Shown: positions 1,159 through 62,485 of the stretch, in pieces
Layout of the letters: the number at the start of each line of letters is the position of its first letter
Position numbering within the stretch: the stretch's first letter is position 1
Source of the DNA: a virus
Lineage: Duplodnaviria > Heunggongvirae > Uroviricota > Caudoviricetes
Length of the DNA stretch: 64,000 nt
IMG/VR virus record: IMGVR_UViG_3300042895_002216
Direction: 5' to 3' (one strand)
Made by a program: the position numbers and the translations under genes
Notes under the pieces: model-generated
What the model was told of the DNA's origin: nothing
What the model saw: only the letters and a program-made list of their open reading frames with translations
Database searches by the model: none

Positions 1159-1461
1159 ATGAAGCACATTAAACTATTTGAAGAGATTAACCGAGAAGAC
1201 GAAGACGAATTATCTGCATTGGGCTTTGACACAGACGACCTTAAACTTAGACGATTTGCTCAACAAGTTTCGGACGAGATCCTTGACGAATACGATTATG
1301 CGGTAGACTCAGGCCGAATATCTGCTAGAGAATATTCCCCCGAAGAAATGTACAAGTACGTAAAGGAACTTTGTTCAGACAACGATATCACAGCAGACGA
1401 AGTAATTGCTGACTTTGAATGGCGCTCGATTACTTGGGAACTTGGGCTTGGAAACATATAA
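1159..1461 (+). CDS. leader-family small acidic protein (MKHIKLFEE N-terminus)
   Basis: 100-aa ORF starting MKHIKLFEEINREDEDELSALGFD. The N-terminus is shared with more than 15 paralogous leaders elsewhere in the window. Confidence 0.6.
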   Translation: MKHIKLFEEINREDEDELSALGFDTDDLKLRRFAQQVSDEILDEYDYAVDSGRISAREYSPEEMYKYVKELCSDNDITADEVIADFEWRSITWELGLGNI

Positions 1462-2923: not shown

Positions 2924-3505
2924 ATGAAGCATATTAAACTTTTTGAGAACTGGTTTCAGGACGTAGAAGATAACGTTGATCGTAAGAGATTTGCGCCTGA
3001 GCTAGAACCTGAAGAGACTAAACCTGCTGAGACTGAAGAAGACCCGGCTGAACCTGAAGAGGAGAAGCCCGATACTCAGGAAGAACCTAAAGCAGAAGAG
3101 CCTACTGAGCCAGAGACATATTCCGGTTGGTTAAAGACCCAAGCTGGCGTAAGCGAAGTTGTTGAAGCTGAAGAAGGTACAGACAATTCAAATGGTTGGG
3201 TTCGCTTGTCAAATGGAGTATCCATTCAATGGGAAATCGATATGCGAGACTATCCGTTCCTTTCCGTAAGTTATATGCTTGATAAAAAAGTAATTCAGTT
3301 AGCTGATAATCCAGCCGGCGATCTTGCTCGACAATTCTACAAAGAGGGCCGTGAATACATTCCTAGAGAATGGGAGTCTGTTGTAATTAAAATAGGTGCA
3401 GGTGTTCCAGCCTTGATAAAGGATGCAATTGCTTCAAACAAGCGACGAATGAAGGAGCAGGACGAGATCTTATCAGGTCAAATCGTTGCAGCTTTTAGCA
3501 AATAA
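2924..3505 (+). CDS. leader-family protein with acidic Pro/Glu-rich linker
   Basis: Starts MKHIKLFENW, followed by a PEEEKPDTQEEPKAEEPTEPE low-complexity stretch and a C-terminal globular part. ATAAATAAT at 2912-2920. Confidence 0.6.
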   Translation: MKHIKLFENWFQDVEDNVDRKRFAPELEPEETKPAETEEDPAEPEEEKPDTQEEPKAEEPTEPETYSGWLKTQAGVSEVVEAEEGTDNSNGWVRLSNGVSIQWEIDMRDYPFLSVSYMLDKKVIQLADNPAGDLARQFYKEGREYIPREWESVVIKIGAGVPALIKDAIASNKRRMKEQDEILSGQIVAAFSK

Positions 3506-3513: not shown

Positions 3514-3828
3514 ATGAAGCAGCACGTAAACCTATTCGAAGAATTCGATAACGACCAAGAAGAATTAAAATCCATGGGCTTCCGTAGCAAGCCAGACGGT
3601 TCACCTGACGAAAGATTCGACGAAGCTGTATCAGAGTGGTATCAAGATCCTGAAGTAACTGCAGCAATCGCTCTTCTTAAAAGAAAATCAACTGAAATCC
3701 TTGAAAAATGGATAGATTTTTCAGACGATGAGGATGAAACTGAATTTGACCAACGAGTATCATGGGTATACGACAATGGAGTTGATGACGTAGGCTGGTT
3801 TGAATTCGTAACAATGCTTGATAATTAA
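3514..3828 (+). CDS. leader-family small acidic protein
   Basis: MKQHVNLFEEFDNDQEELKSMGFRS is paralogous to the 1159 ORF N-terminus. ATAAATAAC at 3502-3510. Confidence 0.6.
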   Translation: MKQHVNLFEEFDNDQEELKSMGFRSKPDGSPDERFDEAVSEWYQDPEVTAAIALLKRKSTEILEKWIDFSDDEDETEFDQRVSWVYDNGVDDVGWFEFVTMLDN

Positions 3829-4540: not shown

Positions 4541-4765
4541 ATGCAACATATTAAATTATTCGAACAATTTATAGCAGAATTCACAATGACTGAGCCGATT
4601 GTTAAACCTGCGCCAGTTAAAGAGCCTAGCACTCGACCTGCAACTAGACCCAAACCTAGTCCAATTCCTAGCAAACAACCGTTTAAACAACCTGAGCCAG
4701 CTAAGGCTCAAGCTGAGGATGTAATTGCTCGCCTAAAAAGTCTAGAATCAAATGAAGAGCTTTAA
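4541..4765 (+). CDS. leader-family Pro-rich small protein
   Basis: MQHIKLFEQF followed by a P/K/A-rich repeat region. ATAAATAAC at 4514-4522. Confidence 0.55.
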   Translation: MQHIKLFEQFIAEFTMTEPIVKPAPVKEPSTRPATRPKPSPIPSKQPFKQPEPAKAQAEDVIARLKSLESNEEL

Positions 4766-6110
4766 AACATTCTTAAATGAAGCTGACATTCGTCAGAACC
4801 CAGCAATAACTCCAGAATACTTAGGATCTCTTGATAAACGAGCAGAACAGAGCGCTCGTGAAGTTGAACAGAGACACGGTCGAGATATGGGTAGCCTAAT
4901 GAGAGCTGTCCGTGAAGTACAGATGTTACAACGCGGTAAAGAACGCCAGCTTGAAGAGTTAACTACTTCAGTAATCCTAAGCCAGTACGGTTCAATTCTT
5001 GGAGAAACTGAGTTAGACATTAAGATTCCAAACGATCCTCGTGAAATGAAAGCGAAGATGAAGGAGACTGATGACGACGATCAAGAAGATCAGGACAAAC
5101 CCAATTTCAAAGAGATTGAGGATGAGGATACTAAAACAGCAATCAATAAACGTAAGATCCTAAACATGATCGCTCAAGGCGAAGCCATTAATTCAAAGAA
5201 GATGTTAATGGGCGATGAGAACATGGAAGGTCTAACTCAATTATTTGGAGAGGCTAATGCCCGTAAAATGGTAGAGCTGCTAGTTACGATTACTGATATT
5301 TGTAATGCTAGAGACTGGAGAATACCTGAAGAGGTTGGAGCAAAAATGATTGAGCAAGGAGATTCCCTTGCCGGTATTTCAAAAATTGAATGGAAACCTA
5401 AATCTAAAAAGGATAACGATGATGATCAAGGTCAAGAAGACGGAGAGTCTGAAGAAGAGACAGTTGACGAAACGACTGTTCCTACCTTAGTTATTAGAGG
5501 AATGGACCAAGCAATGTTATTCCATGAATCTATTAAAGCAATTTGGGGACTGATTAATCAAGGAGGTCTTGCTAATCTAGACGATGAGACTATCCGAAAA
5601 GTGTTCATGAATACTGATACTGCCGCTGACGAAGTACAGGATCTTAAACGTGCTAAATTAACTGCAGCTGATCTTAGAGATTTTATCCAATCTTTCGAAG
5701 AAGTATTTGATATTGAAAACGGTAGAGAATACGTATGGGGTAAAATGATTGACTCAACAGTCGTATCTGATTCTGACTTCTTGGACCTAATGAAATTAAT
5801 ATTCACAGCAGCTCCGTTATACAGAACAGTTGGCGAACAGGAACCTCAATACACAGAGTCTGAAATCGCTGCTGCTAAAGAATCTTTTCCTAAAGCCAAA
5901 GCCATAGTAAATAACTTGATCCGTCTAATTAAACAGGAACTTGCTGATTGGGAAGACTCTCAATCTGATTCTAGCTACGATGAGCCTGACTTTACTATGC
6001 CAGCCAACGATAGAGAACTTGATCAAGTTGATATTCAGAACATGATTGATGCAGCTCTAGATAATAGAGACTTCGCTGAAGTTGAAAGGTTAAGTAACTT
6101 ACTTAAATAA
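4752..6110 (+). CDS. leader-family large acidic protein
   Basis: MKSFKTFLNEADIR N-terminus (K-x-F-x-x-F-x-NEA variant of the leader). 452 aa with D/E-rich segments. 14-nt overlap with the upstream gene. Confidence 0.6.
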   Translation: MKSFKTFLNEADIRQNPAITPEYLGSLDKRAEQSAREVEQRHGRDMGSLMRAVREVQMLQRGKERQLEELTTSVILSQYGSILGETELDIKIPNDPREMKAKMKETDDDDQEDQDKPNFKEIEDEDTKTAINKRKILNMIAQGEAINSKKMLMGDENMEGLTQLFGEANARKMVELLVTITDICNARDWRIPEEVGAKMIEQGDSLAGISKIEWKPKSKKDNDDDQGQEDGESEEETVDETTVPTLVIRGMDQAMLFHESIKAIWGLINQGGLANLDDETIRKVFMNTDTAADEVQDLKRAKLTAADLRDFIQSFEEVFDIENGREYVWGKMIDSTVVSDSDFLDLMKLIFTAAPLYRTVGEQEPQYTESEIAAAKESFPKAKAIVNNLIRLIKQELADWEDSQSDSSYDEPDFTMPANDRELDQVDIQNMIDAALDNRDFAEVERLSNLLK

Positions 6111-6113: not shown

Positions 6114-6959
6114 ATGAAGCATCTTAAGATATTTGAAAGTTGGGTCAACGAATCCCTTACTGCTGATCAAATCGCTGATAAAATTCAAATAGCCGTTGCT
6201 GGTTCAGGAACTGCAGAGGGTGATTTAGTATCAGCAATCAAGTCTATTCCCGATGCTGCATCCATGGTTCGTGTAAACAAAGCACTTAAAACCGGGTTCG
6301 ATACAAAGAGCTGGGATTACGCAAGTGTTGGCGATGCAATTACCGGAGAACTTGGATCCTTTGATCAAGATTACTTGGATCAAATCAACACTCACATAAA
6401 GAATATTAGAGCTGAGAAGTACTTAGGATCTTTCGTTGCTCCTCCTCCACCTGAAGATACAGTATTAAAGGTTATTGAGCCTAGGGTAATCCAACATGAA
6501 GGCTACAAACCAAAGAAGTACATAGACTCTAAAGGAAATCCAACAGTCGGTGTAGGATTCAATCTAAACCGCTCTGACTCAACGTCAATGCTTAGGTCAG
6601 TTGGTGCAAATCCAATAAAGATAAAGTCAGGCCAGTCTGCATTAACCGATCAGCAGATTAAAGCTCTTCTGCATACTGATCTTCAAGCCGCAAAGTCTTT
6701 AGCTAAAACTTTAGTATCAGATAATGGGAAAGTCAGCATAGCTAAAGTTTGGCCAAGCTTGCCACAATCAGTACAAGGAGTCTTAATTGAAATGGTATTT
6801 AATTTAGGAGCTAAAGGCCTATCTGAGTTTAACACGTTTCTACTTCACATAGCTTCAAAGAATTTCAAGGCTGCATCCAAAGAGATGTTAAATTCTTCAT
6901 GGGCAAAACAGGTCGGTAATCGAGCAATAACTCTATCTAACATTGTTAAATCTGCATAA
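6114..6959 (+). CDS. leader-family protein with GH24 (T4-lysozyme-like) domain
   Basis: MKHLKIFESWVNE leader. HEGYKPKKYIDSKGNPTVGVGFNL carries the Glu/Asp/Thr catalytic arrangement of T4-type lysozyme. Confidence 0.75.
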   Translation: MKHLKIFESWVNESLTADQIADKIQIAVAGSGTAEGDLVSAIKSIPDAASMVRVNKALKTGFDTKSWDYASVGDAITGELGSFDQDYLDQINTHIKNIRAEKYLGSFVAPPPPEDTVLKVIEPRVIQHEGYKPKKYIDSKGNPTVGVGFNLNRSDSTSMLRSVGANPIKIKSGQSALTDQQIKALLHTDLQAAKSLAKTLVSDNGKVSIAKVWPSLPQSVQGVLIEMVFNLGAKGLSEFNTFLLHIASKNFKAASKEMLNSSWAKQVGNRAITLSNIVKSA

Positions 6960-7432: not shown

Positions 7433-8266
7433 ATGCCAAAGTACATTAAATTATTTGAAGCTTTCCAAAACGAAGCCCAAGCATATAAGTTCGATCCAAC
7501 TAAATCAGTCTTAACTGGAGCTGCAGTATACAGTGCTGGAACATCATACGCTAAATTTACACTAGGTCGAATCTATATTGCGACTGAAGATAATGAATCC
7601 ACCAAAAAAGCACCAGGAAACGTATTAGTCCTTTTAACGGCTAAGAACAAGGACGTTGAGAAAAAACTTACTGATCTTGGTGGAGTGGCTGCGGCTCTTC
7701 AAGCTAGCGAAATTAACGAACCGCCTGCAGCTGGAGGTGGAGTCTACAAGTATCAAGCATCCTACATATTTAATTTAACTGATCCAGTTGCAGGAGATCA
7801 AATTCTTGGTAAAATTGCAGCTGCTATTAACACAGCACCGACTGGTTCAACTGGAACAAGCGGTACAGCTGGAACTGCTGGAAGCAAGGGAGATTACGCA
7901 GAAGGTTTCTTTGGAAAAGATATTATGACAGCTTTTAGATCGCATGTCGCCGATGTTACTGGAGTTGCATATCAAGCAGCAACCAGTATTCCAGCGTATC
8001 AAGCATCTCTTCAAAACAAGGAACTAAACAAGAGACTTAATTCGGATGCTGAATTTTTAAAGTTAATGAAAGAGGTTGAAGAGCAAGCTAAGTTAACAAA
8101 CGTTGTTGACTTTACTACTGGAAAAACGAAGGATGGAAAGATCGATGCAAAATATCTTGAAATAAGAAAAAAGGTTGCAGCTAGAACTGAAGTAATTAAA
8201 AGTCAGTTAATGAATGCTGGTTCTACCGGTACATCAGGTACGGCTGGTACCGCAGGTAAAATCTAA
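7433..8266 (+). CDS. leader-family protein with Gly-X-Y (collagen-like) repeats
   Basis: MPKYIKLFEAF leader. GSTGTSGTAGTAG occurs twice. ATAAATAAC at 7405-7413. Confidence 0.6.
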   Translation: MPKYIKLFEAFQNEAQAYKFDPTKSVLTGAAVYSAGTSYAKFTLGRIYIATEDNESTKKAPGNVLVLLTAKNKDVEKKLTDLGGVAAALQASEINEPPAAGGGVYKYQASYIFNLTDPVAGDQILGKIAAAINTAPTGSTGTSGTAGTAGSKGDYAEGFFGKDIMTAFRSHVADVTGVAYQAATSIPAYQASLQNKELNKRLNSDAEFLKLMKEVEEQAKLTNVVDFTTGKTKDGKIDAKYLEIRKKVAARTEVIKSQLMNAGSTGTSGTAGTAGKI

Positions 8267-8276: not shown

Positions 8277-9416
8277 ATGAAGCACTTACAACTGTTTGAA
8301 AACTGGAAAGACGAATTATCTACAAGCCAATCTCAATTGGCTGAGCTCGATGCTCTGCGCGATTTCGCAATTATATCAGCAGACGATTACGCTCAACAAG
8401 GAAAGGCTCTTCTGAGCAAGATCGCTGGAATTAATCGTAAACTTCTTAAAGACGCTGATGCGACTCATCCTCGATGGTCAGCTGAGTGGTTAGCTGAAAT
8501 TTCTGAGTACCCTTCTCTTACTTGGTTAACTGATTCGCTAGCTTCGCCTGAATTACAGTCACTATTGGCAAAAGGATTTTATCCATGTTCAAGTAATATT
8601 CAACTGGGAAACCGTACCTTAATGCTATCTAAAAATCCTAACTATTCTCCATTAACTGATACAGCAATTGGATTCTTTTCTTCAATTAATGTAGTACGTC
8701 GAATCGTGCAGAAGCCTAATCCTAAGATGACTTACATGGATCAAAAGCTTAAAGAACTAGATGGAGGTCTTTCTCCAGTAGAGTTCATGAAGCAGGCAAG
8801 TCTATGGGTTCAGGAGAATTTAGTTCTAGAAGTAGACTACCTTCCAAGTAAAAGAGCTTATGCAAGTGATGTAAAGAAAGAGAATCAAGTCGAATTAATG
8901 TATTCAACTCTTGAGACTAAATTTGCAGAGCGCGGCGTTAATTTAGATAGAACACAAATTAAAGCTCTTCCAATTCGAGGTCTGTATCACGGGTCAGTTG
9001 AGATGGCAAAATTAATAAAGCTGCTACAAAAGCAAACCGATCAGTCAAAACCTCTTGAGCTGCCGTTAAACGAGTGGAGTAAATACACTCAGTCAGAAAT
9101 AGATGCAATGTCTAATCCTAATTTAGTATGGACCGTTTCAGCAAACGGCCAGCTCCGATTTGGGTTAGGCTACCCTTACGACAACAATATCCCAACCGAT
9201 ATTAGCAGATTAAATATCAAGCTTGAGTCTACGACTATTCTTGATTACGTATCGGCTGCTAGTACTCAGGTTACGAATCAGTTATTAACTAAATTATCTC
9301 AAGCTGGACTGCAATTCATACAGAAGCTTGAGTGTCCAACTGAAGAGATTGACTTGGACATGTACCCAACTATTCAAGTTAATGAAATCAAAAATATCAG
9401 AGACCAACGTCGATGA
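8277..9416 (+). CDS. leader-family protein
   Basis: MKHLQLFENWKDEL leader. 380 aa. Confidence 0.6.
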   Translation: MKHLQLFENWKDELSTSQSQLAELDALRDFAIISADDYAQQGKALLSKIAGINRKLLKDADATHPRWSAEWLAEISEYPSLTWLTDSLASPELQSLLAKGFYPCSSNIQLGNRTLMLSKNPNYSPLTDTAIGFFSSINVVRRIVQKPNPKMTYMDQKLKELDGGLSPVEFMKQASLWVQENLVLEVDYLPSKRAYASDVKKENQVELMYSTLETKFAERGVNLDRTQIKALPIRGLYHGSVEMAKLIKLLQKQTDQSKPLELPLNEWSKYTQSEIDAMSNPNLVWTVSANGQLRFGLGYPYDNNIPTDISRLNIKLESTTILDYVSAASTQVTNQLLTKLSQAGLQFIQKLECPTEEIDLDMYPTIQVNEIKNIRDQRR

Positions 9417-10849
9417 AACACATACAGCTATACGAAAGCTGGATATTTGAGAATGTCCAAGCAGCAAAAGCATACATGCTTAAGAGAGCAGCACAGTCTC
9501 TAGGAAAAGAAGTAAGTGAACTTACTCCTGAGGAACAGACTCGTGCTCTAAACAATCGTCAATACCTAGAAGTACTTGAATTACTTGGTCAAAAATACAA
9601 TGGTTACTTAGGAACTTTCGTTAAATTCCATTTCGAACAGAGAATTTCAGTAGACCAATTGAAACAACTATTGGACCAAATGATTAAGTACCGTCAACTA
9701 GTTAGCACTCTTCCATATACACTAGATGCCTATTCAAACGGAAATCCTGAACCTGGATCTACAGTTTCAGGTTTTGAAGCGCTAATGGACCAGTTCAGAA
9801 CATTTGAATTTAATTCCAAAGGTAAATGGATAATTGATGCTCTTCCTAGAGAACTTAGAGATCAGGCTCGTGCTCTTGATCCGGAAAAACAAAAGGAACT
9901 TATTCGTATTGGTTGGACAATCGCTGATCAGGGCGAAGCTATTCAAAAGAGAGTAATGTCCAAAGTTGCTCGCTACCGAACTATTCAAGATTTCATGAAG
10001 TATGCATTAGATATTTCAAGCTCAGATGAAGGTTCTCAAAAATTAGTAGCTCAAGCTGAAAGTCTTTCTCCTGAAATTCAGGTAATGTACGATGATAATA
10101 ATTACGTGGTCTTTTCAGTTAGGACTGAAGCTGCACAGAAAGCAATATTCCGTATGGCTAACTGGTGTCTAAACACTGGAAGTTGGGACTCTTATGTAAG
10201 TCGTGGAGTTCAATTAAATATCCTTAACTTTAATGTTCCGAATAGTGATCCAATGTTTGTAACTGGAACAACAGTCCTTGCCTCAGACTCAAGTGTTAAA
10301 GCGTCACACGATGCAAACGACCGCAATATAAAGAAAGATTCTGATCCAGCTACTCATTTACAAATGAACGGCTATCCGGAAGATCTTGTTAATCAAGTAA
10401 TTGCACTACTTCCGTCTGAGATAGTGGTGAAGACTGTTCTTGCAAATATTATGTCTAAAGCAGGAGTTGATGCAAAGATCCAATCACTTGCGGTTGCAGG
10501 TCATGATCTAGAAACCCTAACTGATCCAGTCGCTAGAGAACAGGTTGAAAGAGATTTGCTAATTATTATTGATAACGAATTTGAATCAGAGAATTTCTCA
10601 ACTGAAGCAATGTTGGAAGGATTCAAGAAACATGGAATACTTTCAATGTTCGCTGCTAAGCTATACCATAAACTTCTAGTAGGTAAAATCTCTCAAGAAG
10701 ATGTTGATGCAATCTTTGCTAAGACAGAAAGAGGCTTTGAACTCTTAACCAGAAATGTAAACAACTGGCCTGATCCAAAGATTAAGGCAAAGATTACTGC
10801 CGTGCTTGCCGCGAAAGATCAAATTCTGAATTTAGCAAGAACTGTCTAA
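9413..10849 (+). CDS. leader-family protein
   Basis: MKHIQLYESW leader. 478 aa. ATGA-type overlap with the upstream gene. Confidence 0.6.
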   Translation: MKHIQLYESWIFENVQAAKAYMLKRAAQSLGKEVSELTPEEQTRALNNRQYLEVLELLGQKYNGYLGTFVKFHFEQRISVDQLKQLLDQMIKYRQLVSTLPYTLDAYSNGNPEPGSTVSGFEALMDQFRTFEFNSKGKWIIDALPRELRDQARALDPEKQKELIRIGWTIADQGEAIQKRVMSKVARYRTIQDFMKYALDISSSDEGSQKLVAQAESLSPEIQVMYDDNNYVVFSVRTEAAQKAIFRMANWCLNTGSWDSYVSRGVQLNILNFNVPNSDPMFVTGTTVLASDSSVKASHDANDRNIKKDSDPATHLQMNGYPEDLVNQVIALLPSEIVVKTVLANIMSKAGVDAKIQSLAVAGHDLETLTDPVAREQVERDLLIIIDNEFESENFSTEAMLEGFKKHGILSMFAAKLYHKLLVGKISQEDVDAIFAKTERGFELLTRNVNNWPDPKIKAKITAVLAAKDQILNLARTV

Positions 10850-12723: not shown

Positions 12724-12747
12724 GAATTTGTCTAATAAATAACTTAG

Positions 12748-13893
12748 ATGAAACACTTAAAACCATACAACCAGTTCCTTAATGAGGGAGAATTCTACAA
12801 AGGAGAATTGAACTCTATATTCTGGCAGGACCAGAAGTTTAACCCAGAGGTTCGTACGAAACTTTTGCAGATTGCAACTGATTTCTATACTGACCTAAAA
12901 GTTGAAGCACCAATCATAGACATTCATTTGACTGGATCTCTAGCTAACTTTAACTGGACAGAACACTCTGACTTGGACGTCCATGTTATTCTAGACTTTA
13001 CTATTATCGGAGATGACGTTGAGCTTGTAAAGAAAGCAGTTGATGGATTACGTTTTATCTGGAATCTTAGACACCCAGTAAAGATCCAAGGTTTTGATGT
13101 TGAATTGTATGCACAAGACAAGGACGAACCACACGTTGCATCAGGTTTATATTCCCTAATGAAAGACGAATGGATCACGGTTCCTGAACCAAGTAATCCA
13201 CAGATTGACGAAAAGGATGTTTACCGTAAAGTAGAGGCATTCATTACTGAAATTGAGGAACTTGAAAAGGAAGTAGTTAAGTCAGATTCAGATCAGGCTA
13301 GAGAAGTACAGGACAGAATCTCTGCTCTTAAACAGAAAATCATGAAGGCTCGTAAAGAGGGTCTTGCTGCAAACGGTGAGTTCTCTATCGAGAATCTAGT
13401 ATTTAAACAGTTGCGTAATCAAGGTTACCTTGAGAGATTGATTGACTTAGGCGCTGATGCATATTCCCATATCTATTCTGAACCAAACGATTCACTAGAC
13501 GATAAGCCATCTGATGTAAACGAAAATATCTCAATGGGAAAAGGCAGTTGCGTTCTAGTACTTGGTCCTGAAGTTCAGGGTCAAAAGAGACTATTCGCGT
13601 TTCATGCAGAATACATTAATGAAGTTGAACGAAACGGTTGGCAAGTAAAAATGGTTGGACTTGGCGCTCCAAGTCTGGTTGTTAATCAAGACGGTAGACT
13701 TGTTGCAAAGCAGGTTAACATGAATGCTGCTAATCTAAAGAAGTTCGCAGGTCTTTCCAGCAATACAGTAGTCTTAAATTCAAAAACCAAGACCCCATAC
13801 TGGCACCAAACCGTTAAGTACACGAATCATCAAACTCTACTAAACGACATGGGTCGTACATTAATGTCAATTCCCGGAGTTTCTTTCGACTAA
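12748..13893 (+). CDS. leader-family protein with minimal nucleotidyltransferase (Pol-beta-like) domain
   Basis: MKHLKPYNQFLNE leader. LTGSLANFNWTEHSDLDVHVILDF matches the GS..(9-13)..D-x-D signature of the minimal NTase fold. ATAAATAAC at 12735-12743. Confidence 0.6.
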   Translation: MKHLKPYNQFLNEGEFYKGELNSIFWQDQKFNPEVRTKLLQIATDFYTDLKVEAPIIDIHLTGSLANFNWTEHSDLDVHVILDFTIIGDDVELVKKAVDGLRFIWNLRHPVKIQGFDVELYAQDKDEPHVASGLYSLMKDEWITVPEPSNPQIDEKDVYRKVEAFITEIEELEKEVVKSDSDQAREVQDRISALKQKIMKARKEGLAANGEFSIENLVFKQLRNQGYLERLIDLGADAYSHIYSEPNDSLDDKPSDVNENISMGKGSCVLVLGPEVQGQKRLFAFHAEYINEVERNGWQVKMVGLGAPSLVVNQDGRLVAKQVNMNAANLKKFAGLSSNTVVLNSKTKTPYWHQTVKYTNHQTLLNDMGRTLMSIPGVSFD

Positions 13894-17598: not shown

Positions 17599-18741
17599 AT
17601 GAATGTAAACCAAATAAAAACAGAAATTCTTTCAGGTTTAACTATTGCAATTGCTCTTGTACCTGAAGCAATTTCATTTGCTTTATTAGTCGGAGCTTCT
17701 CCTCAAATTGGATTATGGGCAGCAGTCTTCATGGCTCTGTCTACTGCAATATTCGGCGGAAGACCTGGTTTAATTAGTGGAGCGACTGGGGCAACTGCCG
17801 TAATTATGGCCGGCCTCGTATCAATTGCTGGAATTGAATCGCTTTTCCTTGGAGTAGTAGTTGCTGGAATTATTCAATTGATAATTTGGGCTTCAGGTGC
17901 ATGGAAAATATTTAAAAAGATTCCGCCTTCTGCTATTTCAGGTTTCTTAATTGCACTAGCGATTATGATTTTAGTAAGCCAGTTTAAATACTTAACTATC
18001 GGTAATCCATCTTCTACTGGCCTAATATTAACTATATCAACTATATTATTATGCGCAGCTGCAATGATATGGTCCTCACGGAAATTTAGTTTTCCTCCAG
18101 CGTTAGTGTCGATTACAGTTGGTTGCTTAATGGGAATTCCATTAGGCTTAGCGACAGTCGGCGATCTATCGCCAGTAACCGCAAGCTTGCCAACGCTAGC
18201 TATCCCAACCTTTAGTTGGAGTCTGCTATTGACAGTCTTACCGTATTCATTCGGGATGGCTGTGTCTGGCTTAACTGAATCTCTGTTGACTGTCGATACT
18301 GTGTCTCATAAATTAAATGAACACGGCGATAAAGCAAAAGAGACATTTGCTCAAGGGCTTGGTAATATAGTTAGCGGATTCTTTGGAACAATGGGAGGCT
18401 GCGTCCTAGTCGGACAGACTAATTTAAACGTAAATGCTGGAGCAAAGCATCGACTCTCTGGAATAGTTGCAGGGATTGGGCTCTCTCTAATTATTCTATT
18501 GTTTGGGAAATGGATTGAACAACTACCGCTAGTTGGATTAATTGGAGTAATGTTGGTAGTTGTATATCAAACTGGGGATTGGCAAAGCATAAAATCAGGA
18601 AATAAACTTAACTTATTGAGTATTATATTGACAGTTATTATTTCGTTAGCTACTCATAACTTAGCAATCGGTGTAATCATCGGGTCAATTGTATTCTATT
18701 TTAGTAAATTAATATTAAAGCATGACACACGTAAAGAATAA
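17599..18741 (+). CDS. polytopic membrane protein, SulP/anion-permease-like
   Basis: About 10 predicted TM helices. The N-terminal GLTIAIALVPEAISFALLVGASPQIGLWAA resembles the SulP permease core. No STAS domain. Confidence 0.5.
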   Translation: MNVNQIKTEILSGLTIAIALVPEAISFALLVGASPQIGLWAAVFMALSTAIFGGRPGLISGATGATAVIMAGLVSIAGIESLFLGVVVAGIIQLIIWASGAWKIFKKIPPSAISGFLIALAIMILVSQFKYLTIGNPSSTGLILTISTILLCAAAMIWSSRKFSFPPALVSITVGCLMGIPLGLATVGDLSPVTASLPTLAIPTFSWSLLLTVLPYSFGMAVSGLTESLLTVDTVSHKLNEHGDKAKETFAQGLGNIVSGFFGTMGGCVLVGQTNLNVNAGAKHRLSGIVAGIGLSLIILLFGKWIEQLPLVGLIGVMLVVVYQTGDWQSIKSGNKLNLLSIILTVIISLATHNLAIGVIIGSIVFYFSKLILKHDTRKE

Positions 18742-20105: not shown

Positions 20106-20657
20106 ATGTTAAAATCATTTAGCCAATTCGTAACTGGATTATTTGAAAAGAAAGGAGACGCTCATAGTTATGGATGTGCAATGGTCTATTTCAATTTTCC
20201 AACAATGCCTGAACTGCATTCAAAAATAGATGAAGCAGATATCTACACAGAAGAGGGCGATCGTTCATACGGTCTTGAGGATGAACCTCATACAACTCTT
20301 TTATATGGACTTCATTCGGCAGATATTAATGACGCTAAGGTATTAGAGATATGTAAATCTAAACCAATCGGTCAACTGACTCTACATAATGCATCTCTAT
20401 TTGAGAATGCTAAATACGATGTACTTAAGTTTGATGTAGAAAATCCAGTGTTGGCTGAGATTAATGCAGAACTTAGTAAGTTACCTCACACTACTGATTT
20501 CCCAGACTACCATCCACATGCAACAATCGGGTACCTAAAGCCTGGAACCGGCAAGAAATACGTTGACTTATTTAATGGTAATCGGCATGAAGTCGCTGCT
20601 CATAAAATAGTTTATTCAAAACCTGACGACAGTCGAATCGAAGAAGAATGGAATTAA
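20106..20657 (+). CDS. 2H phosphoesterase superfamily protein (LigT-like) with degenerate leader
   Basis: Two H-x-[TS]-x motifs (EPHTTLLYG and HPHATIGYL) spaced as in 2H cyclic phosphodiesterases / 2'-5' RNA ligases. The N-terminus MLKSFSQFVTGLFEKKG resembles the leader family. Confidence 0.6.
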   Translation: MLKSFSQFVTGLFEKKGDAHSYGCAMVYFNFPTMPELHSKIDEADIYTEEGDRSYGLEDEPHTTLLYGLHSADINDAKVLEICKSKPIGQLTLHNASLFENAKYDVLKFDVENPVLAEINAELSKLPHTTDFPDYHPHATIGYLKPGTGKKYVDLFNGNRHEVAAHKIVYSKPDDSRIEEEWN

Positions 20658-21103
20658 TTAGTACATACATTTGCAAGCAAGGAGATATTGGTGTCCACAA
20701 TAATATGTTTGGTGGAATTATCCTTTCTATTATTGACGATGCTGCTGCAAGTTATGCATCTCAAATATGCGACACCCAACGAGTAGTAACCCTAAAAATT
20801 GACGAGCTGGTTTTTTCAAAGCCAGTAAAGGTCGGTAATATTATAAAAATATACGGATCAGTAAAGGCGTTTGGAACAACTTCAGTTACTCTATACATTG
20901 AAGTTCGTAAGCATAATGTTTACACTGGAGTTCAAACAGTAGTTACTCACACAAATATAAAATTCGTTCGGATTGACGATGAGGGTAATTCCCTAGCAAT
21001 TAGCGAAGGAGTCAAAGTTAGATACACTGATCGAGTTAAGGAATTCGGCAGAGCTCTACTTGATCCAGACGAAATGTCAACTCGTAAAAATAAAAACAAA
21101 TAA
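20648..21103 (+). CDS. hotdog-fold acyl-CoA thioesterase-like protein
   Basis: FGGIILSIIDDAAASYAS...VVTLKIDELVFSKPVKVGNIIKIYGSVK matches the 4HBT/YbgC-type hotdog pattern. Confidence 0.6.
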   Translation: MELISTYICKQGDIGVHNNMFGGIILSIIDDAAASYASQICDTQRVVTLKIDELVFSKPVKVGNIIKIYGSVKAFGTTSVTLYIEVRKHNVYTGVQTVVTHTNIKFVRIDDEGNSLAISEGVKVRYTDRVKEFGRALLDPDEMSTRKNKNK

Positions 21104-21281: not shown

Positions 21282-22025
21282 TTAAAAGATATACTTTAAA
21301 AGAACTGACGCAGTTTCCTGAGAAGGATTAACTGAGTCTGTTATGTAATGAGGGTAACCTTGATAGCTATACGTATAAACTAATCCTATTTCTAAATTCT
21401 TTTTAATCTTAAGTGCGATTGTGTTTGTACTTCGCATGTTTAAATTATCTAGAAAAGAAACTTCTCTGCTTGAATAAATTGCTGGCTGAAATAGAGTAAC
21501 TGACGAGATCTTAATCAATCCGCTTTCGTAATTTGCTCTAAGTCTAGATGATGCTCTTACTGTAAAGTTATTATTTGAAACCTTAATGCTGGACCAAAAA
21601 TACTCTGGCAAAATTACTTCAGAGAAAACAATATCGAACTTCTTATTCTTGATAATTGATACGCCTAATCCCAAACCAGCTGAGCTTCGAAGATCTATTT
21701 TTCTCATGTATGATCTCTCATCTTCAGTAAATCCAATAACTTTAAACTTACCTATCTGTTTTGAAATATTTCCAGTCAAGTAGACTTCATTTTCGTACTG
21801 AGTCATTTCAGATTTTCCATACGCGGATTGCTTGCTCCAACGGTAAGTAGTATTTAGATTCCATTGATACGATCCAGTATCTCTTTTTAATTCAGCTTTC
21901 GTTGTAATACCAATTGCACTAAAGTTTCCCCTAGTTCCATCTCCTCCAACCGATATTGATTTTTTAATTTGACTAAATACAGGTAATGAGACTGTCAGTA
22001 ATAGTATCGTTAATATAAACTTCAT
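21282..22025 (-). CDS. secreted protein, possible outer-membrane beta-barrel
   Basis: Signal peptide MKFILTILLLTVSLPVFSQ. Alternating hydrophobic beta-strand-like pattern and a C-terminal aromatic residue. Confidence 0.45.
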   Translation of the reverse strand: MKFILTILLLTVSLPVFSQIKKSISVGGDGTRGNFSAIGITTKAELKRDTGSYQWNLNTTYRWSKQSAYGKSEMTQYENEVYLTGNISKQIGKFKVIGFTEDERSYMRKIDLRSSAGLGLGVSIIKNKKFDIVFSEVILPEYFWSSIKVSNNNFTVRASSRLRANYESGLIKISSVTLFQPAIYSSREVSFLDNLNMRSTNTIALKIKKNLEIGLVYTYSYQGYPHYITDSVNPSQETASVLLKYIF

Positions 22026-22492
22026 TATTTGTTACGTGTATTTTTTAACTGTATTATTTGGTTAACTGCATTTAGGAATAACCAGTCCTCGACATCAGTT
22101 AACTTACATAAAAAATTATATTCATGCATGTAACACATGAGCTCCTCTTCTCTTGCTGTAAACTTAATCAAGTTATTCCATAAGTACAGGTGATACGACT
22201 CATGCACCAATACGGCCGCTAAATTATTAATAGACGGACTAGTTACGTCCTTTGTATTAATCACAATAGTATTGGGTGGAAGGTTAGTAGATCTATCGCC
22301 CATTATAAACTCAATTCGTTTACAATTCGTAATCAGAGTTTGGTAACTAACTGAGTCAGTATCTTTTACAAGTAAAATAGCCCTCTCGACTCTAGCCTTC
22401 CAGCCGTCTCCGACATCGTCTATTACTATTTGAGAAAATCCAAATACTGGAATCGTTAATATTAATACAATTAAGGCATTTTTAAAATACAT
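22025..22492 (-). CDS. secreted protein with HExxH motif
   Basis: Signal peptide ending FSQ. VLVHESYHL is a zinc-metallopeptidase-type motif. Confidence 0.45.
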   Translation of the reverse strand: MYFKNALIVLILTIPVFGFSQIVIDDVGDGWKARVERAILLVKDTDSVSYQTLITNCKRIEFIMGDRSTNLPPNTIVINTKDVTSPSINNLAAVLVHESYHLYLWNNLIKFTAREEELMCYMHEYNFLCKLTDVEDWLFLNAVNQIIQLKNTRNK

Positions 22493-22944
22493 TGTTCAAG
22501 TGCTTTTTTGATAGAATTAGATACTGTCATTTTAGAAAACGGCATAGCACCCTCTTCCAATTCAATCATTACGGCTCTCACCTCAGTCTCAGACTCGCCA
22601 GTCCCTTCGTACTTTTGCCCGTTATAATAAATTCGAACAGCGACTTGTGTAACCTGCTCAGTCTTTTCTATTCCAGCAATACGTATGGTACTTTTAGGAA
22701 TACCGAAATAATAGATCTCAATCTTAATTGGGGATCCTGCATCAGATAGACAGTATTTAGAAGAAAGTAGGTCTTCTGCTATTTGCTTTACACCAAACCG
22801 AATATCACGGTTTCCTAATTCCCTAACCTTTGCGGTAGAATATACTGTGTCTATTTTAATACACATGTGAATTGGGCTAGTTTGCGAAAAAGCCAGCAGC
22901 TGTACCAATAGTAAAACTGCAAGCAATAAAATAAACTTCTTCAT
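22471..22944 (-). CDS. secreted protein
   Basis: Signal peptide MKKFILLLAVLLLVQLLAFSQ. Confidence 0.45.
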   Translation of the reverse strand: MKKFILLLAVLLLVQLLAFSQTSPIHMCIKIDTVYSTAKVRELGNRDIRFGVKQIAEDLLSSKYCLSDAGSPIKIEIYYFGIPKSTIRIAGIEKTEQVTQVAVRIYYNGQKYEGTGESETEVRAVMIELEEGAMPFSKMTVSNSIKKALEQCILKMP

Positions 22945-22957
22945 CTTATAAAATTTA

Positions 22958-23239
22958 TTATTTTTTTAGTTCAATTATTGCATCCTCAACGTATTTATCA
23001 CGTTGGTCTTGTAAGTATTGTATTCGATCGAGCATAATTTGTTTATCATCCTTTACTGTTTGCTCAGTATAGGCTTTTTGTGCTTCATATAGTTTTTGCC
23101 AATACGCTACACGCTCTTCCATCATCACGCCTTGATACCAAATAACCGCTATCATAAGTACGATGGTAAATGATTGTTCTTTTAGTTTAGAAAAGAAGGT
23201 ATCCGTAAATCCTGAAGTAGGGTTTGTTTCTTCTGCCAT
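22958..23239 (-). CDS. small membrane protein
   Basis: One TM helix (FTIVLMIAVIWYQGVMM) and a charged C-terminal coiled segment. Confidence 0.4.
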   Translation of the reverse strand: MAEETNPTSGFTDTFFSKLKEQSFTIVLMIAVIWYQGVMMEERVAYWQKLYEAQKAYTEQTVKDDKQIMLDRIQYLQDQRDKYVEDAIIELKK

Positions 23240-23259
23240 ATTTAATTTGTTTTTTTTAT

Positions 23260-26105: not shown

Positions 26106-26119
26106 TTGCGTTTCATATT

Positions 26120-26839: not shown

Positions 26840-26841
26840 GA

Positions 26842-27204
26842 TTATTCGGTTACGTTATTTGAAGTAGTATTAGAAAGAGATACTCCATCTTCTTCGTCAA
26901 CCTTTTGAATTAACATTTTATCACGATCTTCTGAATTGAACCAGTAGTCAACTACTTTATTTAGGTTACCAACAAAGGCTCCCAATAAAAGAAGTAGTAA
27001 TTCTTTCCAATCTTCTGCGATTGTTACTCCAAAAAATACAGCTGAATTAATTCCAGCAATAATAAAGAAGAAAAGAAATAGAACGATTCCTGTAATTTTC
27101 CAACGGTTTGACTGCATTTGTTGTAGCATGTAGTAGAAGCGATTCTTGTCTTCAACCTTTACGTATGCAGATTCACCGATTAATAATTTTTTCAAATTAG
27201 ACAT
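26842..27204 (-). CDS. membrane protein (holin-like candidate)
   Basis: 120 aa with two adjacent TM segments, upstream of the endolysin on the same strand. Confidence 0.35.
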   Translation of the reverse strand: MSNLKKLLIGESAYVKVEDKNRFYYMLQQMQSNRWKITGIVLFLFFFIIAGINSAVFFGVTIAEDWKELLLLLLGAFVGNLNKVVDYWFNSEDRDKMLIQKVDEEDGVSLSNTTSNNVTE

Positions 27205-27265
27205 TGTAGTAGTAGTTTATTTTTAGTTCTGAAAATAAAAAGGCGGACGTTAATCCGCCTTCTGA

Positions 27266-27607: not shown

Positions 27608-27614
27608 TGTTTGT

Positions 27615-34842: not shown

Positions 34843-35394
34843 ATGAAACTTAAGAGATTTTCACAATTTGTAAAAGAGAGCTTGATAACAGAATCTTCGT
34901 CAGTTATTGAAGTTGAAGAAAATATATTCTTAATAGACGAAATAATCTACATAATTTGGCTTGTTACACTAGACGTATCTTTCGATTATGAGCCTGACGA
35001 TAGCAGTGTCGGATTCGTTGGCGGCTATTCAGTTGATGATGTTGACTTTGATGGAGTAGACGGAGTGTATAAAGTAACTGATCCTTCAGTAATTTCGCAG
35101 GTTAAAGCCATGCTAGATTCCCCTGAAGCTGAAGAGTTAAAAAGCATGGGATTTGAAGGAGCTGATGAATATGCAGCAATTGGCGATTTAATATACGATG
35201 CAGAGCAAGAAGAAATTACAGGAGAAGAGCTCAAGGACTTCATTAATAAATTCAAAGCTCTTTACGATTCAAATACTCTAGTCGATTTAACTGGTACTTT
35301 CAAAAAAAGAACTGACTCTGCTCTCGATAGAGCGGTTGAGGATTTTGAACCTGATGAGCCTGACTACGATGATTACGACGATGATCGTTATTAA
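34843..35394 (+). CDS. leader-family acidic protein
   Basis: MKLKRFSQFVKESL leader, C-terminal D/E/Y-rich tail. ATAAATAAT at 34818-34826. Confidence 0.6.
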   Translation: MKLKRFSQFVKESLITESSSVIEVEENIFLIDEIIYIIWLVTLDVSFDYEPDDSSVGFVGGYSVDDVDFDGVDGVYKVTDPSVISQVKAMLDSPEAEELKSMGFEGADEYAAIGDLIYDAEQEEITGEELKDFINKFKALYDSNTLVDLTGTFKKRTDSALDRAVEDFEPDEPDYDDYDDDRY

Positions 35395-35420: not shown

Positions 35421-35984
35421 ATGAAACTTAAAAGATTCACACAATTTGTTAACGAAGCAAAGATTAACGAAGCTCAAATCAAAGATAAAACTATCGTTGC
35501 TAAGCTTGATAGAATTCACGAAATCAAAACTCGATTAAAAGAATTGACAGCTGAAACAAAAGCTATCAATACTGAGCTTGGTGCATTTGATGCAACAATG
35601 AAGCCGATCTTTGATGCAATGAAAGTCCTAAATGATAAGCTTGCAACAACTGAAAAATACGTTATCAAGATTTCAAGATACGGCGGATCTTCTGAAAACC
35701 CATCTTATGCTAAAGCTGTAGAGCAGGCACTAGGGTTAGTCGATGCTGCTGCTCAAGCAATTATCAACGAATGTGTTAGACAAAACACAGCAATATCAAA
35801 CGTAAAACACTCATACGATATTGAAAAACTAGATGAATCTAAATTAACTGATAAAGCTAAAGCGATCGTTGCTAGGTTGTCTGGTAAAATCACAGCAATC
35901 GTTGCCAAGTTAAAGTCTTTCTTTGAGTCTAAATTCTCTAAGATCGATCAAGCAAACGAAAAACTTGCAGCAATGATAAAGTAA
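35421..35984 (+). CDS. leader-family protein
   Basis: MKLKRFTQFVNEAK leader. ATAAATAAA at 35394-35402. Confidence 0.6.
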   Translation: MKLKRFTQFVNEAKINEAQIKDKTIVAKLDRIHEIKTRLKELTAETKAINTELGAFDATMKPIFDAMKVLNDKLATTEKYVIKISRYGGSSENPSYAKAVEQALGLVDAAAQAIINECVRQNTAISNVKHSYDIEKLDESKLTDKAKAIVARLSGKITAIVAKLKSFFESKFSKIDQANEKLAAMIK

Positions 35985-56996: not shown

Positions 56997-57581
56997 ATGA
57001 AACACCTTAAACTATACGAAGAATTTGATCTTGACAGATTCCTAGACAATCCAGAAAAGGAATTAGCTGATGACAATTCACCAGAGATCAATGTAGGAAA
57101 TTACGTTGACTCATACCGAGGTAAAGGCCAAGTGCTTGATATCGATAGCGATTTTGCAAAAGTTGAATTACATAACTCAAAAGGCAATATTGTTAAAGTT
57201 CCAGTTTTTGCTCTAACTAAAATATCTCACGAAGACCTAACTTCAGCCAAGGTCGGAGATTCTCAAGCTGAACTTGCGGAGCTAGTGAGTCAGGCCAGAC
57301 AGTACAATGATTACCTTGACTCAACTGAAGATTATGATAACGAAGATGAAGAGGATGGAGTTTACTCAGCAAGTCAGGTAAATTTCGATACCCTACTAGC
57401 ATATATTCAAGATACAACGATCGATGTTATCTCTATTAAAAATAACGATAGTGCATACGATACCTATTCAGAATATCACGAACTGATTAATTTAGTCGGC
57501 TCAATCGCTGGAGCAATTCAGAGAGCAAGACCGGACTTAATGGATGAAGTTGATGCAGCACTAGACAATTTCCCAGGATAA
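56997..57581 (+). CDS. leader-family acidic protein
   Basis: MKHLKLYEEF leader. TATAAATAAC at 56984-56993. Confidence 0.6.
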   Translation: MKHLKLYEEFDLDRFLDNPEKELADDNSPEINVGNYVDSYRGKGQVLDIDSDFAKVELHNSKGNIVKVPVFALTKISHEDLTSAKVGDSQAELAELVSQARQYNDYLDSTEDYDNEDEEDGVYSASQVNFDTLLAYIQDTTIDVISIKNNDSAYDTYSEYHELINLVGSIAGAIQRARPDLMDEVDAALDNFPG

Positions 57582-58912
57582 TGAGACTTAAACGATTTAC
57601 ACAATTCGTTAATGAAAATACTGATGATGCTGAAGAATTAGCAGCATTAGGTTTTAATTCAAAGATTGACACGGATGAAATTCAAGGATTAATGGCCGAA
57701 TACAACCCAGAGGAGAAGACCGACACGACATTAGGTTTCGATTTGGGATTTGATATGACAGCTGATGATTTAGGACTTGATCCAGAAAGAGCAGAGGCTG
57801 CTGAATTAGATAGCGTGTTCCTTGTTCAGTACTATGTTGATTTCGACTTTGAGACAATGAAATCTAAAGTACAAGTGGCAGTCTTAAATTCTGGGATTGA
57901 TTTTGACGGTGCAGGTAATGCGTATGAAGTTGATTTTAAACTGGATTCAGAAAATCACGATTCTCAAGGAATCGCTGATGAGTTAACTCAGATTTTGCAG
58001 CGAATTGAATACGAAGGCATGTTTGTAGACATGGCAGTCGATATAGTAAATGACATAATCGATAGACGTCTTGGAGAAGTATCAGAAAAGAAGAAACTTA
58101 AATGGCATGATTCTGATGAGCCTAACACAAAAGGAAAATTCATAATTGAGAACTTATCTGATGAAGAAGCTGCAGAACTAAGAGCAATGGGTTTTGGTGG
58201 AGTTGACACTGATGCAATCGCAGAACTAGTCAATGGAGCAACTGCAGAAGATCAAATCGTTATTGTTTCAGGCCAGTTCAATCAATCTATAGATGATTAC
58301 GGAATAGATTCATCCGAATATCCGGATATAGAAAGAGACGTATGGACTGATTTTGAAGTCAGAATAAACTTTATCGATGAAACTGTTAAGTCGTCAGTTA
58401 GTGTCGCACAAAAAGATATCGGACTTTACGAAGATGCTGAACTTGAAGACTATGAATGGTCTGACCTATTCCAAAATGGAGATCCAGTTTCAATGAAGTC
58501 TAATGAGATAGCTGAAGATATTGAACTCTTTATGAGTGCCGTAACTGGTTTCGAAGACTCGCTTGGAATGTACGACAAAATTCAAGATCTTTTAAATAAG
58601 GCAATTGAGGAACAGTATCACAGATGGGATGACGAAGAAGATGATGAAGCTGATGAAGATGAAATTTCAGAAAAGAAAAAACTTAAATGGCACGATTCTG
58701 ATGCACCTGATGCAAATGGAAAATTCAGAGACCTTGGAGTTAATAAATTAGCGGATTGGTTAATCAGAACAAGAGGTGGTAACATGCAAAAGATTACTGG
58801 ATCGCTAAATCAACAAATTAATTTTAACAAGCGAAAAAATCCAAGTTATGCCAAGAAAATGGAGTCGACTCGGGAAGCAGTTAAAAGAAAATTAGCAAAA
58901 AGAAAAGAATAA
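57581..58912 (+). CDS. leader-family large acidic protein
   Basis: MRLKRFTQFVNEN leader. 443 aa, extremely D/E-rich with an internal duplicated EKKKLKWHDSD motif. Confidence 0.6.
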   Translation: MRLKRFTQFVNENTDDAEELAALGFNSKIDTDEIQGLMAEYNPEEKTDTTLGFDLGFDMTADDLGLDPERAEAAELDSVFLVQYYVDFDFETMKSKVQVAVLNSGIDFDGAGNAYEVDFKLDSENHDSQGIADELTQILQRIEYEGMFVDMAVDIVNDIIDRRLGEVSEKKKLKWHDSDEPNTKGKFIIENLSDEEAAELRAMGFGGVDTDAIAELVNGATAEDQIVIVSGQFNQSIDDYGIDSSEYPDIERDVWTDFEVRINFIDETVKSSVSVAQKDIGLYEDAELEDYEWSDLFQNGDPVSMKSNEIAEDIELFMSAVTGFEDSLGMYDKIQDLLNKAIEEQYHRWDDEEDDEADEDEISEKKKLKWHDSDAPDANGKFRDLGVNKLADWLIRTRGGNMQKITGSLNQQINFNKRKNPSYAKKMESTREAVKRKLAKRKE

Positions 58913-62188: not shown

Positions 62189-62485
62189 ATGCATAATAAT
62201 AAAATTTTAAGTTTCGAAGAATTCGTTCAACAAGGAACAGGCGAAATGGGTCAGGAAATGGGCCACGAAATGGACCATACTGCTGAAATGCCACAGGGCG
62301 GAGAAGATCAAGCACTATTACCAGCACCAGCTGAAGAAGTAGAAGGCGGAGAAACTGAACACAACGTTCCAAACCACATGCAAGATGATTCAGAAGAAGG
62401 AACTTCTGACAATGAACCTAATATTGAAGTTGAAACATCAGCTAACGATATTGAAGCACACACCGACGAAAACGGCGGATTCTAA
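62189..62485 (+). CDS. small acidic protein with leader-like N-terminus
   Basis: MHNNKILSFEEFVQQG. ATAAATAAAC at 62162-62171. Confidence 0.45.
   Translation: MHNNKILSFEEFVQQGTGEMGQEMGHEMDHTAEMPQGGEDQALLPAPAEEVEGGETEHNVPNHMQDDSEEGTSDNEPNIEVETSANDIEAHTDENGGF

Follow-up and report, generated by a model that had tools for sequence, protein, structure and literature searches.

The 64,000-nucleotide stretch of phage DNA analysed here (IMG/VR record IMGVR_UViG_3300042895_002216; hereafter the window, at its full length) carries at 20106..20657 (+) a gene for a 183-residue 2H phosphoesterase whose N-terminus resembles the capsid-targeting leader of the phage T4 internal proteins. The gene product would be a metal-independent 2H phosphodiesterase with phage Acb1 and the poxvirus cyclic GMP-AMP (cGAMP) phosphodiesterase as its nearest characterised relatives, and its H62/T64 and H138/T140 tetrad most likely cuts the 3'-5' bonds of cyclic di- or trinucleotide immune signals by way of a 2',3'-cyclic phosphate intermediate. 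Signalling of the CBASS type (cyclic-oligonucleotide-based anti-phage signalling system), and possibly the cyclic triadenylate (cA3) of type III CRISPR, would be blunted in a Bacteroidota host. The separable leader, about 14-20 residues ending in E14 and followed by a linker to about residue 20, would dock the enzyme into the prohead scaffolding core, and a T4-type (gp21-type) prohead protease would cut after L12-F13-E14. The mature enzyme of ~169 residues would be injected along with the DNA, and signal degradation could begin before any phage gene expression. We put the probability of this whole mechanism, from 2H enzyme and signal substrate to packaging, cleavage and injection, at roughly 45%. 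What is new is that a 2H enzyme is combined with a T4-type leader and that the set of leader-tagged genes is so large; taken alone, the enzyme is unremarkable within its very large family.

Results

The open reading frame (ORF) starts at the first ATG of its frame, its coordinates include the stop codon, and the protein begins with MLKSFSQFVTGLFEKK. Two small overlapping ORFs on the opposite strand (55 and 42 amino acids) received no support. The original prediction, made from the DNA letters alone, had recognised a 2H phosphoesterase in this 183-residue protein from the motifs HTTL and HATI, and both are present at residues 62-65 and 138-141. The motif pair alone is weak evidence, because about 0.3 occurrences of two H-x-T in 183 residues are expected by chance (a rough estimate of our own from amino-acid composition), and it is homology that supplies the strength. 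In an alignment of 44 homologs at 50-90% identity, H62, T64, H138 and T140 were invariant, and the loss of either histidine, which the prediction had named as the sign that would speak against it, was found in none of these sequences. A third H-x-T (H128-T-T130) is not catalytic, and homologs do not conserve it.

The family of this protein is very large and known chiefly from metagenomes, with 1057 homologs at E<=1e-3 in a word-indexed search and 5495 cluster representatives in an exhaustive profile search. A megablast search with 7 kb around the gene gave no match in 50,697 phage records. The AlphaFold model built with the 44-homolog alignment (predicted local distance difference test, pLDDT, 87.2; predicted template modelling score, pTM, 0.80) showed the bilobed alpha+beta fold with pseudo-twofold symmetry over residues 21-183, and residues 1-19 lay outside the predicted fold at pLDDT ~42. 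Foldseek against the PDB returned at E<=1e-3 only 2H enzymes, led by the penguinpox cGAMP phosphodiesterase, phage BCSR5 Acb1 and phage FBB1 Acb1, with Usb1 and LigT ranking below these. Motifs, fold and homologs together make it practically certain that the protein is a 2H enzyme, as had been proposed. Four homologs of 800-1475 residues (P0124, P0237, P0217, P0211) join the 2H domain to other domains. The fusion partners, namely an ADP-ribosyltransferase (ART) toxin domain, a CCA-adding enzyme with DUF5661, a type IB topoisomerase and GNAT, resemble "polyvalent protein" architectures.

Two roles had been offered for the enzyme, one on cyclic-nucleotide second messengers and one in LigT-type RNA repair; the profile comparisons supported the former and went against the latter, while fold comparison gave no separation of Acb1-like from LigT-type function. 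When all PDB sequences were searched with a profile of the family, Acb1 chains alone were reached (E 0.012-0.12); LigT and cyclic phosphodiesterase (CPDase) chains were absent even at E<=10, and no Usb1 chain was returned. Alignment of the family with 16 canonical Acb1 proteins by hhalign gave a probability of 90% (E 1.6e-6). Against single sequences, where hhalign yielded short local alignments only, the like-for-like probabilities were 47.7% for T4 Acb1 and 2.4% for Escherichia coli ThpR/LigT. In hmmsearch, most canonical Acb1 proteins scored 8-24 bits, against -1.6 bits for LigT. The Pfam Acb1 model matched 38 of the 44 homologs at E<=1e-3 (best 1.8e-8), and the fusion homologs P0146, P0218 and P0237 exceeded its cut-off of 27 bits, whereas PF02834 (LigT_PEase) matched three of the 44 and gave no match for the window protein. 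Moreover, F132 aligned confidently with F107 of Acb1, a base-stacking residue (PMC9117128). These comparisons favour an Acb1-like cyclic-oligonucleotide phosphodiesterase over LigT-type RNA repair, and we conclude from sequence that the clade is an Acb1-like branch of the 2H superfamily and not Acb1 in the strict sense. The chances that the substrate is a signalling nucleotide are slightly better than even.

The N-terminus of the protein shares a motif that recurs among the ORFs of the window, written as MKH[LI]K[LI]FE.[FW].NE or MKLKRF[ST]QFV[KN]E. A matrix of nine columns, derived from 13 ORFs of the window that bear a leader (the 2H ORF not among them), scored the 9-mer KSFSQFVTG at ~11.1 bits (10.6-11.1), and the leave-one-out range of true members was 10.2-21.7. 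The best non-leader ORF reached 6.0 bits and the remainder <=2.0, and none of 18,399 internal 9-mers reached 11.1 bits. Altogether, at least 16 leader-bearing ORFs of the window scored >=10 bits, and apart from the leader their proteins are unrelated. The 2H protein thus very probably belongs to the leader family, in agreement with the proposal that MLKSFSQFVTG is a diverged packaged-protein leader. That the leader causes packaging, by analogy with T4, may be given an even chance. The description of this leader as "degenerate" was only partly right: the canonical Glu is lost, but K-x-F-x-x-F-V is intact, and L12-F13-E14, which comes after G11, supplies in E14 the Glu conserved in the family. 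Codon usage varies among the leader copies (AAG/AAA, CAC/CAT, TTT/TTC, GAA/GAG), and therefore conservation acts on the peptide and not on a DNA repeat. The tagged proteins are mostly ORFans without a Pfam or PHROGs match, plus a lysozyme-domain protein and a weak nucleotidyltransferase-like protein, and the motif was absent from the replication, tail and RNA-repair proteins of the window. The leader ORFs sit in 3-4 clusters (1159-13893, 34843-35984, 56997-58912 and 62189-62485).

The leader travels with the 2H family yet is separable from it. Nearly all of the 120 best homologs begin with a leader variant ahead of the conserved Y-G-C-A-M strand, and that of homolog P0091, MKTYNDFITE, is near-identical to the T4 sequence. 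Among 222 homologs with an extension of >=10 residues (median 22), an aromatic i/i+3 pair occurred within the first 14 residues in 62% (controls 6-10%) and [LIVFM]-x-E within the extension in 96% (controls 40-45%). In 146 of 213 homologs the extension Glu is placed 6-9 residues ahead of the core, the position taken by E14 in the window protein. The homolog of Maribacter phage Molly, an unrelated phage that is not T4-like, had no leader. In contig L007 the 2H gene stands among ~10 leader-tagged genes, several of them encoding ART-PolyVal ADP-ribosyltransferases, the class of T4 Alt, a packaged protein. In the 438-residue homolog of LR745206 (L010 7995-9311), a leader and a 2H domain are joined to a DEDD-type (DNA polymerase exonuclease-like) domain; a protein built in this way could open cyclic oligonucleotides into linear form and go on to digest what results. 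The gene of this homolog is surrounded by other members of an array that counts at least 10 leader-tagged genes.

The capsid-targeting sequence borne by the T4 internal proteins (IP) was reportedly described by Mullaney and Black in 1996. IPII and IPIII start with MKTYQEFIAE and IPI with MKTFKEFTS, and the window matrix scored MKTYQEFIAE at 8.3 bits, above all non-leader ORFs of the window. These T4 proteins have only the leader in common, which guides them into the scaffolding core, and they are injected after gp21 has cut it off (PMC3012670, PMC9958956, PMC12373910); the specificity of gp21 is I/L-x-E (PMC12991175). In T4 gp23 the sole [FYW]xx[FYW][ILV]xE motif is FGSFLTE, which ends in E65, the known maturation cleavage site (PMC9958956). 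The 634-kb megaphage LR745206, covered over its first 344 kb, has a T4-type portal (Portal_T4, 2.7e-57) and major capsid protein (Gp23, 1.8e-26), and the interval between them encodes a 707-residue protein (L018 2546-4666; LR745206 198546-200669). Pairwise BLASTP of this protein with T4 gp21 gave E 0.001, with D-H-P opposite N-H-P of gp21, and a gp21-like V-S-S-R motif lies further on, beyond the alignment; tblastn of T4 gp21 against the covered part at E<=1e-3 returned no protease. Beyond its N-terminus the 707-residue protein is scaffold-like, with 10 tandem 14-residue repeats YSEY[LI]AENLDKNI. The YSEY[LI]AE units share the pattern [FY]-x-x-[FY]-[ILV]-x-E with the leaders and the gp23 cleavage site, which suggests that the leader may imitate one scaffold unit. 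The N-terminus of T4 Acb1, MMEFKDFST, was tried as a capsid-targeting remnant and rejected, as it scored -0.1 bits and runs into the strand with the catalytically important Y12. In T4, acb1 (57B) adjoins ipI (L001 11592-12411 = T4 73591-74410), and its product has a superficial likeness to the IPI leader.

An octamer similar to the T4 late promoter TATAAATA, namely ATAAATAA, occurs at 17 sites on the plus strand and two on the minus strand (30405, 23263) of the window, 19 against ~10 expected from shuffles. It lies 12-33 nt before 15 ORF starts, nine of them of leader genes, and is probably the late promoter of the phage. The window also encodes a sigma factor. The features discussed here and below are collected in Table 1.

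Table 1. Features of the 2H gene, leader-bearing ORFs, promoter-like sites and other genes of the window.
Feature	Position	Strand	Basis or remark
2H leader, residues 1-14 (MLKSFSQFVTGLFE)	20106..20147	+	Outside fold; matrix score; extension conserved family-wide
Leader core 9-mer, K3-G11, KSFSQFVTG	20112..20138	+	Fits K-x-[FY]-x-x-[FW]-[ILV]-x-E except final Glu to Gly
L12-F13-E14, candidate L-x-E prohead-protease site	20139..20147	+	Glu 8 residues ahead of G-C-A-M core motif
First catalytic motif, H62-T-T64-L (HTTL)	20289..20300	+	H62, T64 invariant
Acb1-like signature, D-F-P-D-Y-H-P-H138-A-T140-I	20496..20528	+	Encloses second catalytic motif; aligned to Acb1
Second catalytic motif, HATI	20517..20528	+	H138, T140 invariant
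4HBT thioesterase gene	20648..21103	+	Start overlaps 2H stop by 10 nt
Leader ORF (MKHIKLFEEINRE)	1159..1461	+	Matrix
Leader ORF (MKHIKLFENWFQD)	2924..3505	+	Matrix; ATAAATAA 12 nt upstream
Leader ORF (MKQHVNLFEEFDND)	3514..3828	+	Matrix
Leader ORF (MQHIKLFEQFIAE)	4541..4765	+	Matrix; FIAE identical to T4 capsid-targeting sequence
Leader ORF (MKSFKTFLNE)	4752..6110	+	Matrix; 452 residues, no family match
Leader ORF, phage lysozyme domain	6114..6959	+	Matrix
Leader ORF (MPKYIKLFEAFQNE)	7433..8266	+	Matrix
Leader ORF (MKHLQLFENWKDE)	8277..9416	+	Matrix
Leader ORF (MKHIQLYESWIFE)	9413..10849	+	Matrix
Leader ORF (MKHLKPYNQFLNE)	12748..13893	+	Matrix; weak nucleotidyltransferase-like matches
Leader ORF (MKLKRFSQFVKE)	34843..35394	+	Matrix; leader nearest to 2H leader
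Leader ORF (MKLKRFTQFVNE)	35421..35984	+	Matrix
Leader ORF (MKHLKLYEEFDLD)	56997..57581	+	Matrix
Leader ORF (MRLKRFTQFVNE)	57581..58912	+	Matrix
Leader ORF (MHNNKILSFEEFVQQ)	62189..62485	+	Matrix; borderline, 10.5 bits
ATAAATAA, example sites	2912, 3502, 4514, 7405, 12735, 34818, 35394, 56985, 62162	+
Other ORFs behind ATAAATAA	693 (tail-collar), 40240 (PA14/GLEYA), 29556-30380 (endolysin-like, -), 147, 11917, 22958
Sulfate permease, SulP	17599-18741	+	380 residues, E 9e-40
Tad6 homolog	33866-34564	+	PF25188, 78.8 bits (cut-off 27)
ClpP	41139-41804		E 5.6e-58
Remaining host-like genes, listed together	45085-46014, 47947-49380, 49462-50199, 50773-51975
Gene block with Bacteroidota-style signal peptides	21282-31083	-	Includes DUF481 protein
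Cohesin-domain protein with C-terminal sorting domain	27615-29537	-	Within the minus-strand block
Endolysin-like protein	29556-30380	-	PG_binding_1 + GH19; no Bacteroidota-style signal peptide

The immediate neighbours of the 2H gene encode topoisomerase II subunits, a sulfate permease and a 4HBT thioesterase. The original prediction had placed the enzyme among nearby tRNA and repair genes, a context that did not hold up: the tRNA array begins 13 kb away and the CCA-adding enzyme and RNA ligase lie at ~30 kb (these two and an AAA_33 kinase fall at 21-31 kb), and an RNA ligase adjoined the 2H gene in none of seven homologous loci. Because of the 10-nt gene overlap, the thioesterase and the 2H enzyme are probably co-translated. 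Relatives of 70-90% identity retain the order topoisomerase II, 2H, thioesterase and more distant ones do not, and the 2H-thioesterase adjacency was absent in L006-L008 and L010; a functional link between the two was rejected, since the adjacency is kept only in close relatives. The SulP gene, an unusual auxiliary transporter for a phage, lies between two topoisomerase II subunit genes and is found in relatives L002 and L003 and not in L004. In relatives L004 and L005 a gene like that of phosphoribosyl pyrophosphate (PRPP) synthetase directly follows the 2H-thioesterase pair.

The window has a low G+C content (39%) and 26 tRNAs. Its topoisomerase subunit was closest to those of the uncultured 460-640 kb megaphages LR745206, LR756502, LR756504 and LR756500 (50-58% identity), followed by distant T4-like phages. 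Besides ClpP, the host-like genes encode a PRPP-synthetase-like protein, an SPFH/Band 7 protein, the CCA-adding tRNA nucleotidyltransferase and the RNA ligase, which has a PHA02142 OB domain. The content of the minus-strand block differs between L002 and L003. Because of the signal peptides of this block and the type IX secretion system (T9SS) C-terminal sorting domain of its cohesin-domain protein, the sequence points to a probable Bacteroidota host. Furthermore, the window encodes a homolog of Tad6, a type I Thoeris inhibitor, and therefore the phage invests in countering nucleotide-signalling immunity. The Tad6 gene, which two leader-tagged genes directly follow, is also present in relatives L004/L005.

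Discussion

Several observations weigh against the mechanism put forward above. On the side of the substrate, the window protein stayed under the Pfam cut-off of 27 bits for both families in a near tie between 2_5_RNA_ligase2 (PF13563, 25.3 bits) and Acb1 (PF23474, 25.0 bits), and the hhalign similarity to Acb1 spans 45 columns around T-x-D-F-x-D-Y-x-P-H-x-T, in the second lobe only. A low-confidence global hhalign paired Y12 with Y22 and W147 with W182 (T4 Acb1 numbering first), set W74 of Acb1 opposite S97, with the invariant F99 two residues off, and set E141 opposite S176, where the family has no conserved Glu. In Acb1 the contact of E141 to adenine N6 sets the adenosine requirement. On the side of packaging, G11 stands in place of the canonical leader Glu (FVTG), and no head or prohead-protease gene was found within the window. 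In the LR745206 protein the N-terminal Peptidase_S77 match was below threshold (E 0.005, 16.8 against 27 bits). The 2H gene starts 22 nt past the stop of a gp52-type, early-type topoisomerase II subunit gene, and the exact ATAAATAA was absent upstream of it, so that late expression of the 2H gene is unsupported.

Some of these points would suit a cytoplasmic Acb1-like nuclease whose N-terminal motif is not a packaging signal and is instead a recombination vestige, a helix (for oligomerisation or as a lid) or an N-terminal degron by which the phage ClpP times the turnover of accessory proteins. Such an enzyme would fit the lost Glu and a gene in a replication-gene cluster without a late-promoter-like motif; the strong ClpP match would supply the protease for a degron, no packaging has been reported for T4 Acb1, whose N-terminus fails the leader matrix, and 16 tagged genes per 64 kb would make a large cargo list. 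However, the extension and its Glu position are kept across hundreds of divergent homologs, where a vestige would not so persist, and the leader, for which disorder and a place outside the fold are predicted, is confined to accessory or effector-like proteins and matches both the capsid-targeting sequence defined by experiment in T4 and the cleavage context of gp23. We consider a purely cytoplasmic role rather unlikely.

A different enzymatic role is less probable still. As a LigT/ThpR-type RNA 2',3'-cyclic phosphodiesterase, the protein would heal tRNA or mRNA ends left by host anticodon nucleases, together with the ligase, kinase and CCA-adding enzyme that, like the 26 tRNAs, the window encodes. 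The PF13563 score equal to that for Acb1, the match to PHROG 755 (2e-10), which is labelled "RNA ligase", and the distance of only 6-7 kb between RNA ligase and 2H gene in L006 and L008 could be read in this way, and homolog P0237, with its fusion to a PolyA_pol/CCA-adding enzyme, fits RNA repair equally well. Against it stand the failure of LigT-type enzymes in the hhalign, hmmsearch and PDB profile comparisons, the distance of ~30 kb to the repair genes, which were operonic with the 2H gene in none of the loci examined, and the observation that an RNA ligase never accompanies phage 2H domains of this kind (Iyer, Burroughs, Anand, de Souza and Aravind 2017, PMC5512222), all of which make such repair improbable. 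Least probable is another target, whether for a Usb1-like 3' exoribonuclease on host RNA or for a phosphodiesterase of 2'-5' oligoadenylates or ADP-ribose 1''-2'' cyclic phosphate. Usb1 ranked high in both fold searches, the LR745206 homolog carries the DEDD-type exonuclease-like domain, and a Usb1-like RNase role has been proposed for packaged 2H domains (Iyer et al. 2017, PMC5512222), but the identity to Usb1 is just 7-8%, the PDB profile search returned no Usb1 chain, and the D-F-x-D-Y-x-P-H-x-T signature is that of Acb1.

A signal-degrading enzyme carried in the virion is retained as the preferred explanation. A more far-reaching version, held only tentatively, is that the leader is a true capsid-targeting signal imitating the scaffold repeat, that the tagged arrays of these Bacteroidota megaphage relatives form an injected effector arsenal, and that, within this arsenal, the 2H protein would be the first case of a catalytic anti-signalling nuclease that enters ready-made with the genome. 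The known Acb1-type nucleases are cytoplasmic enzymes that the phage expresses, and the internal proteins of T4 are known as injected stoichiometric inhibitors; if true, a signal-degrading nuclease with a packaging leader would bring both together, and phages could pre-load erasers of immunity signals into the virion. The prohead protease can trip CBASS (Hobbs and Kranzusch 2026 preprint), and under the far-reaching version this protease would also mature the antidote. Moreover, the leader offers a simple sequence handle for listing candidate injected effectors in uncultivated T4-related megaphages; at least 16 genes carry it in the 64-kb window, as do more than 10 in the surroundings of the LR745206 homolog, and most of these genes lack a known function. 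No report of an Acb1 or Acb1-like enzyme with a capsid-targeting leader, or of a packaged Acb1, was found in the literature.

Among known enzymes, Acb1 (T4 gp57B and Erwinia phage FBB1; PF23474; Hobbs et al. 2022, PMC9117128) is likewise a small phage 2H fold with the HxT/HxT tetrad, found in T4-related phages; it shares the T-x-D-F-x-D-Y-x-P-H-x-T block including the base-stacking Phe and is the sole PDB family reached by the profile. The window protein differs from it in an identity of only ~18-19%, in similarity limited to the second lobe, in its score under the Pfam cut-off, in a core ~20 residues larger and in not conserving the adenine-contacting Glu. A cleavable leader is absent from canonical Acb1, whose MM/KxFxDFS leads straight into strand 1 carrying Y12. 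The penguinpox cGAMP phosphodiesterase (9bkq/9ciw) and the Burkholderia phage BCSR5 phosphodiesterase (9q2g/9q2y), for the latter of which nothing was found in the literature, are the best Foldseek matches (E 6e-6 to 1e-5, template modelling score ~0.6) and are viral 2H enzymes degrading cyclic dinucleotides, but they share 15-17% identity and no sequence-level family membership with the window protein, and their substrates include the animal signal 2'3'-cGAMP. LigT/ThpR (PF02834/PF13563; PDB 4qak, 5ldm, 1vgj) is set apart by the lack of a detectable profile relationship and of an operonic link to RNA repair.

The 2H domains of phage polyvalent proteins, for which packaging and injection are predicted, have been proposed to degrade signalling nucleotides (Iyer et al. 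2017, PMC5512222). Homologs of the window protein are similarly fused to ART, GNAT, topoisomerase I and CCA-enzyme domains, whereas the window domain stands alone, and its proposed capsid entry would depend on a short cleavable leader and not on a MuF or portal fusion or a giant multidomain protein. The closest parallel for the leader is provided by T4 IPI, IPII and IPIII (PMC3012670, PMC9958956, PMC12373910), in which unrelated accessory proteins, clustered in variable loci, bear an N-terminal tag of ~10 residues that follows K-x-[FY]-x-x-F-[ILV]-x-E and has an I/L-x-E protease site at its end. The leader clusters of the window are similar to these T-even loci, but on a far larger scale. The T4 cargo consists of anti-defence proteins injected with the DNA, as is proposed for the 2H protein; the known members, however, are small stoichiometric inhibitors of the GmrSD nuclease and not such enzymes. 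In the window phage, a distant uncultivated relative of T4 that would infect Bacteroidota, the tag is instead carried by a catalytic 2H nuclease, and at least 15 further proteins within 64 kb share it.

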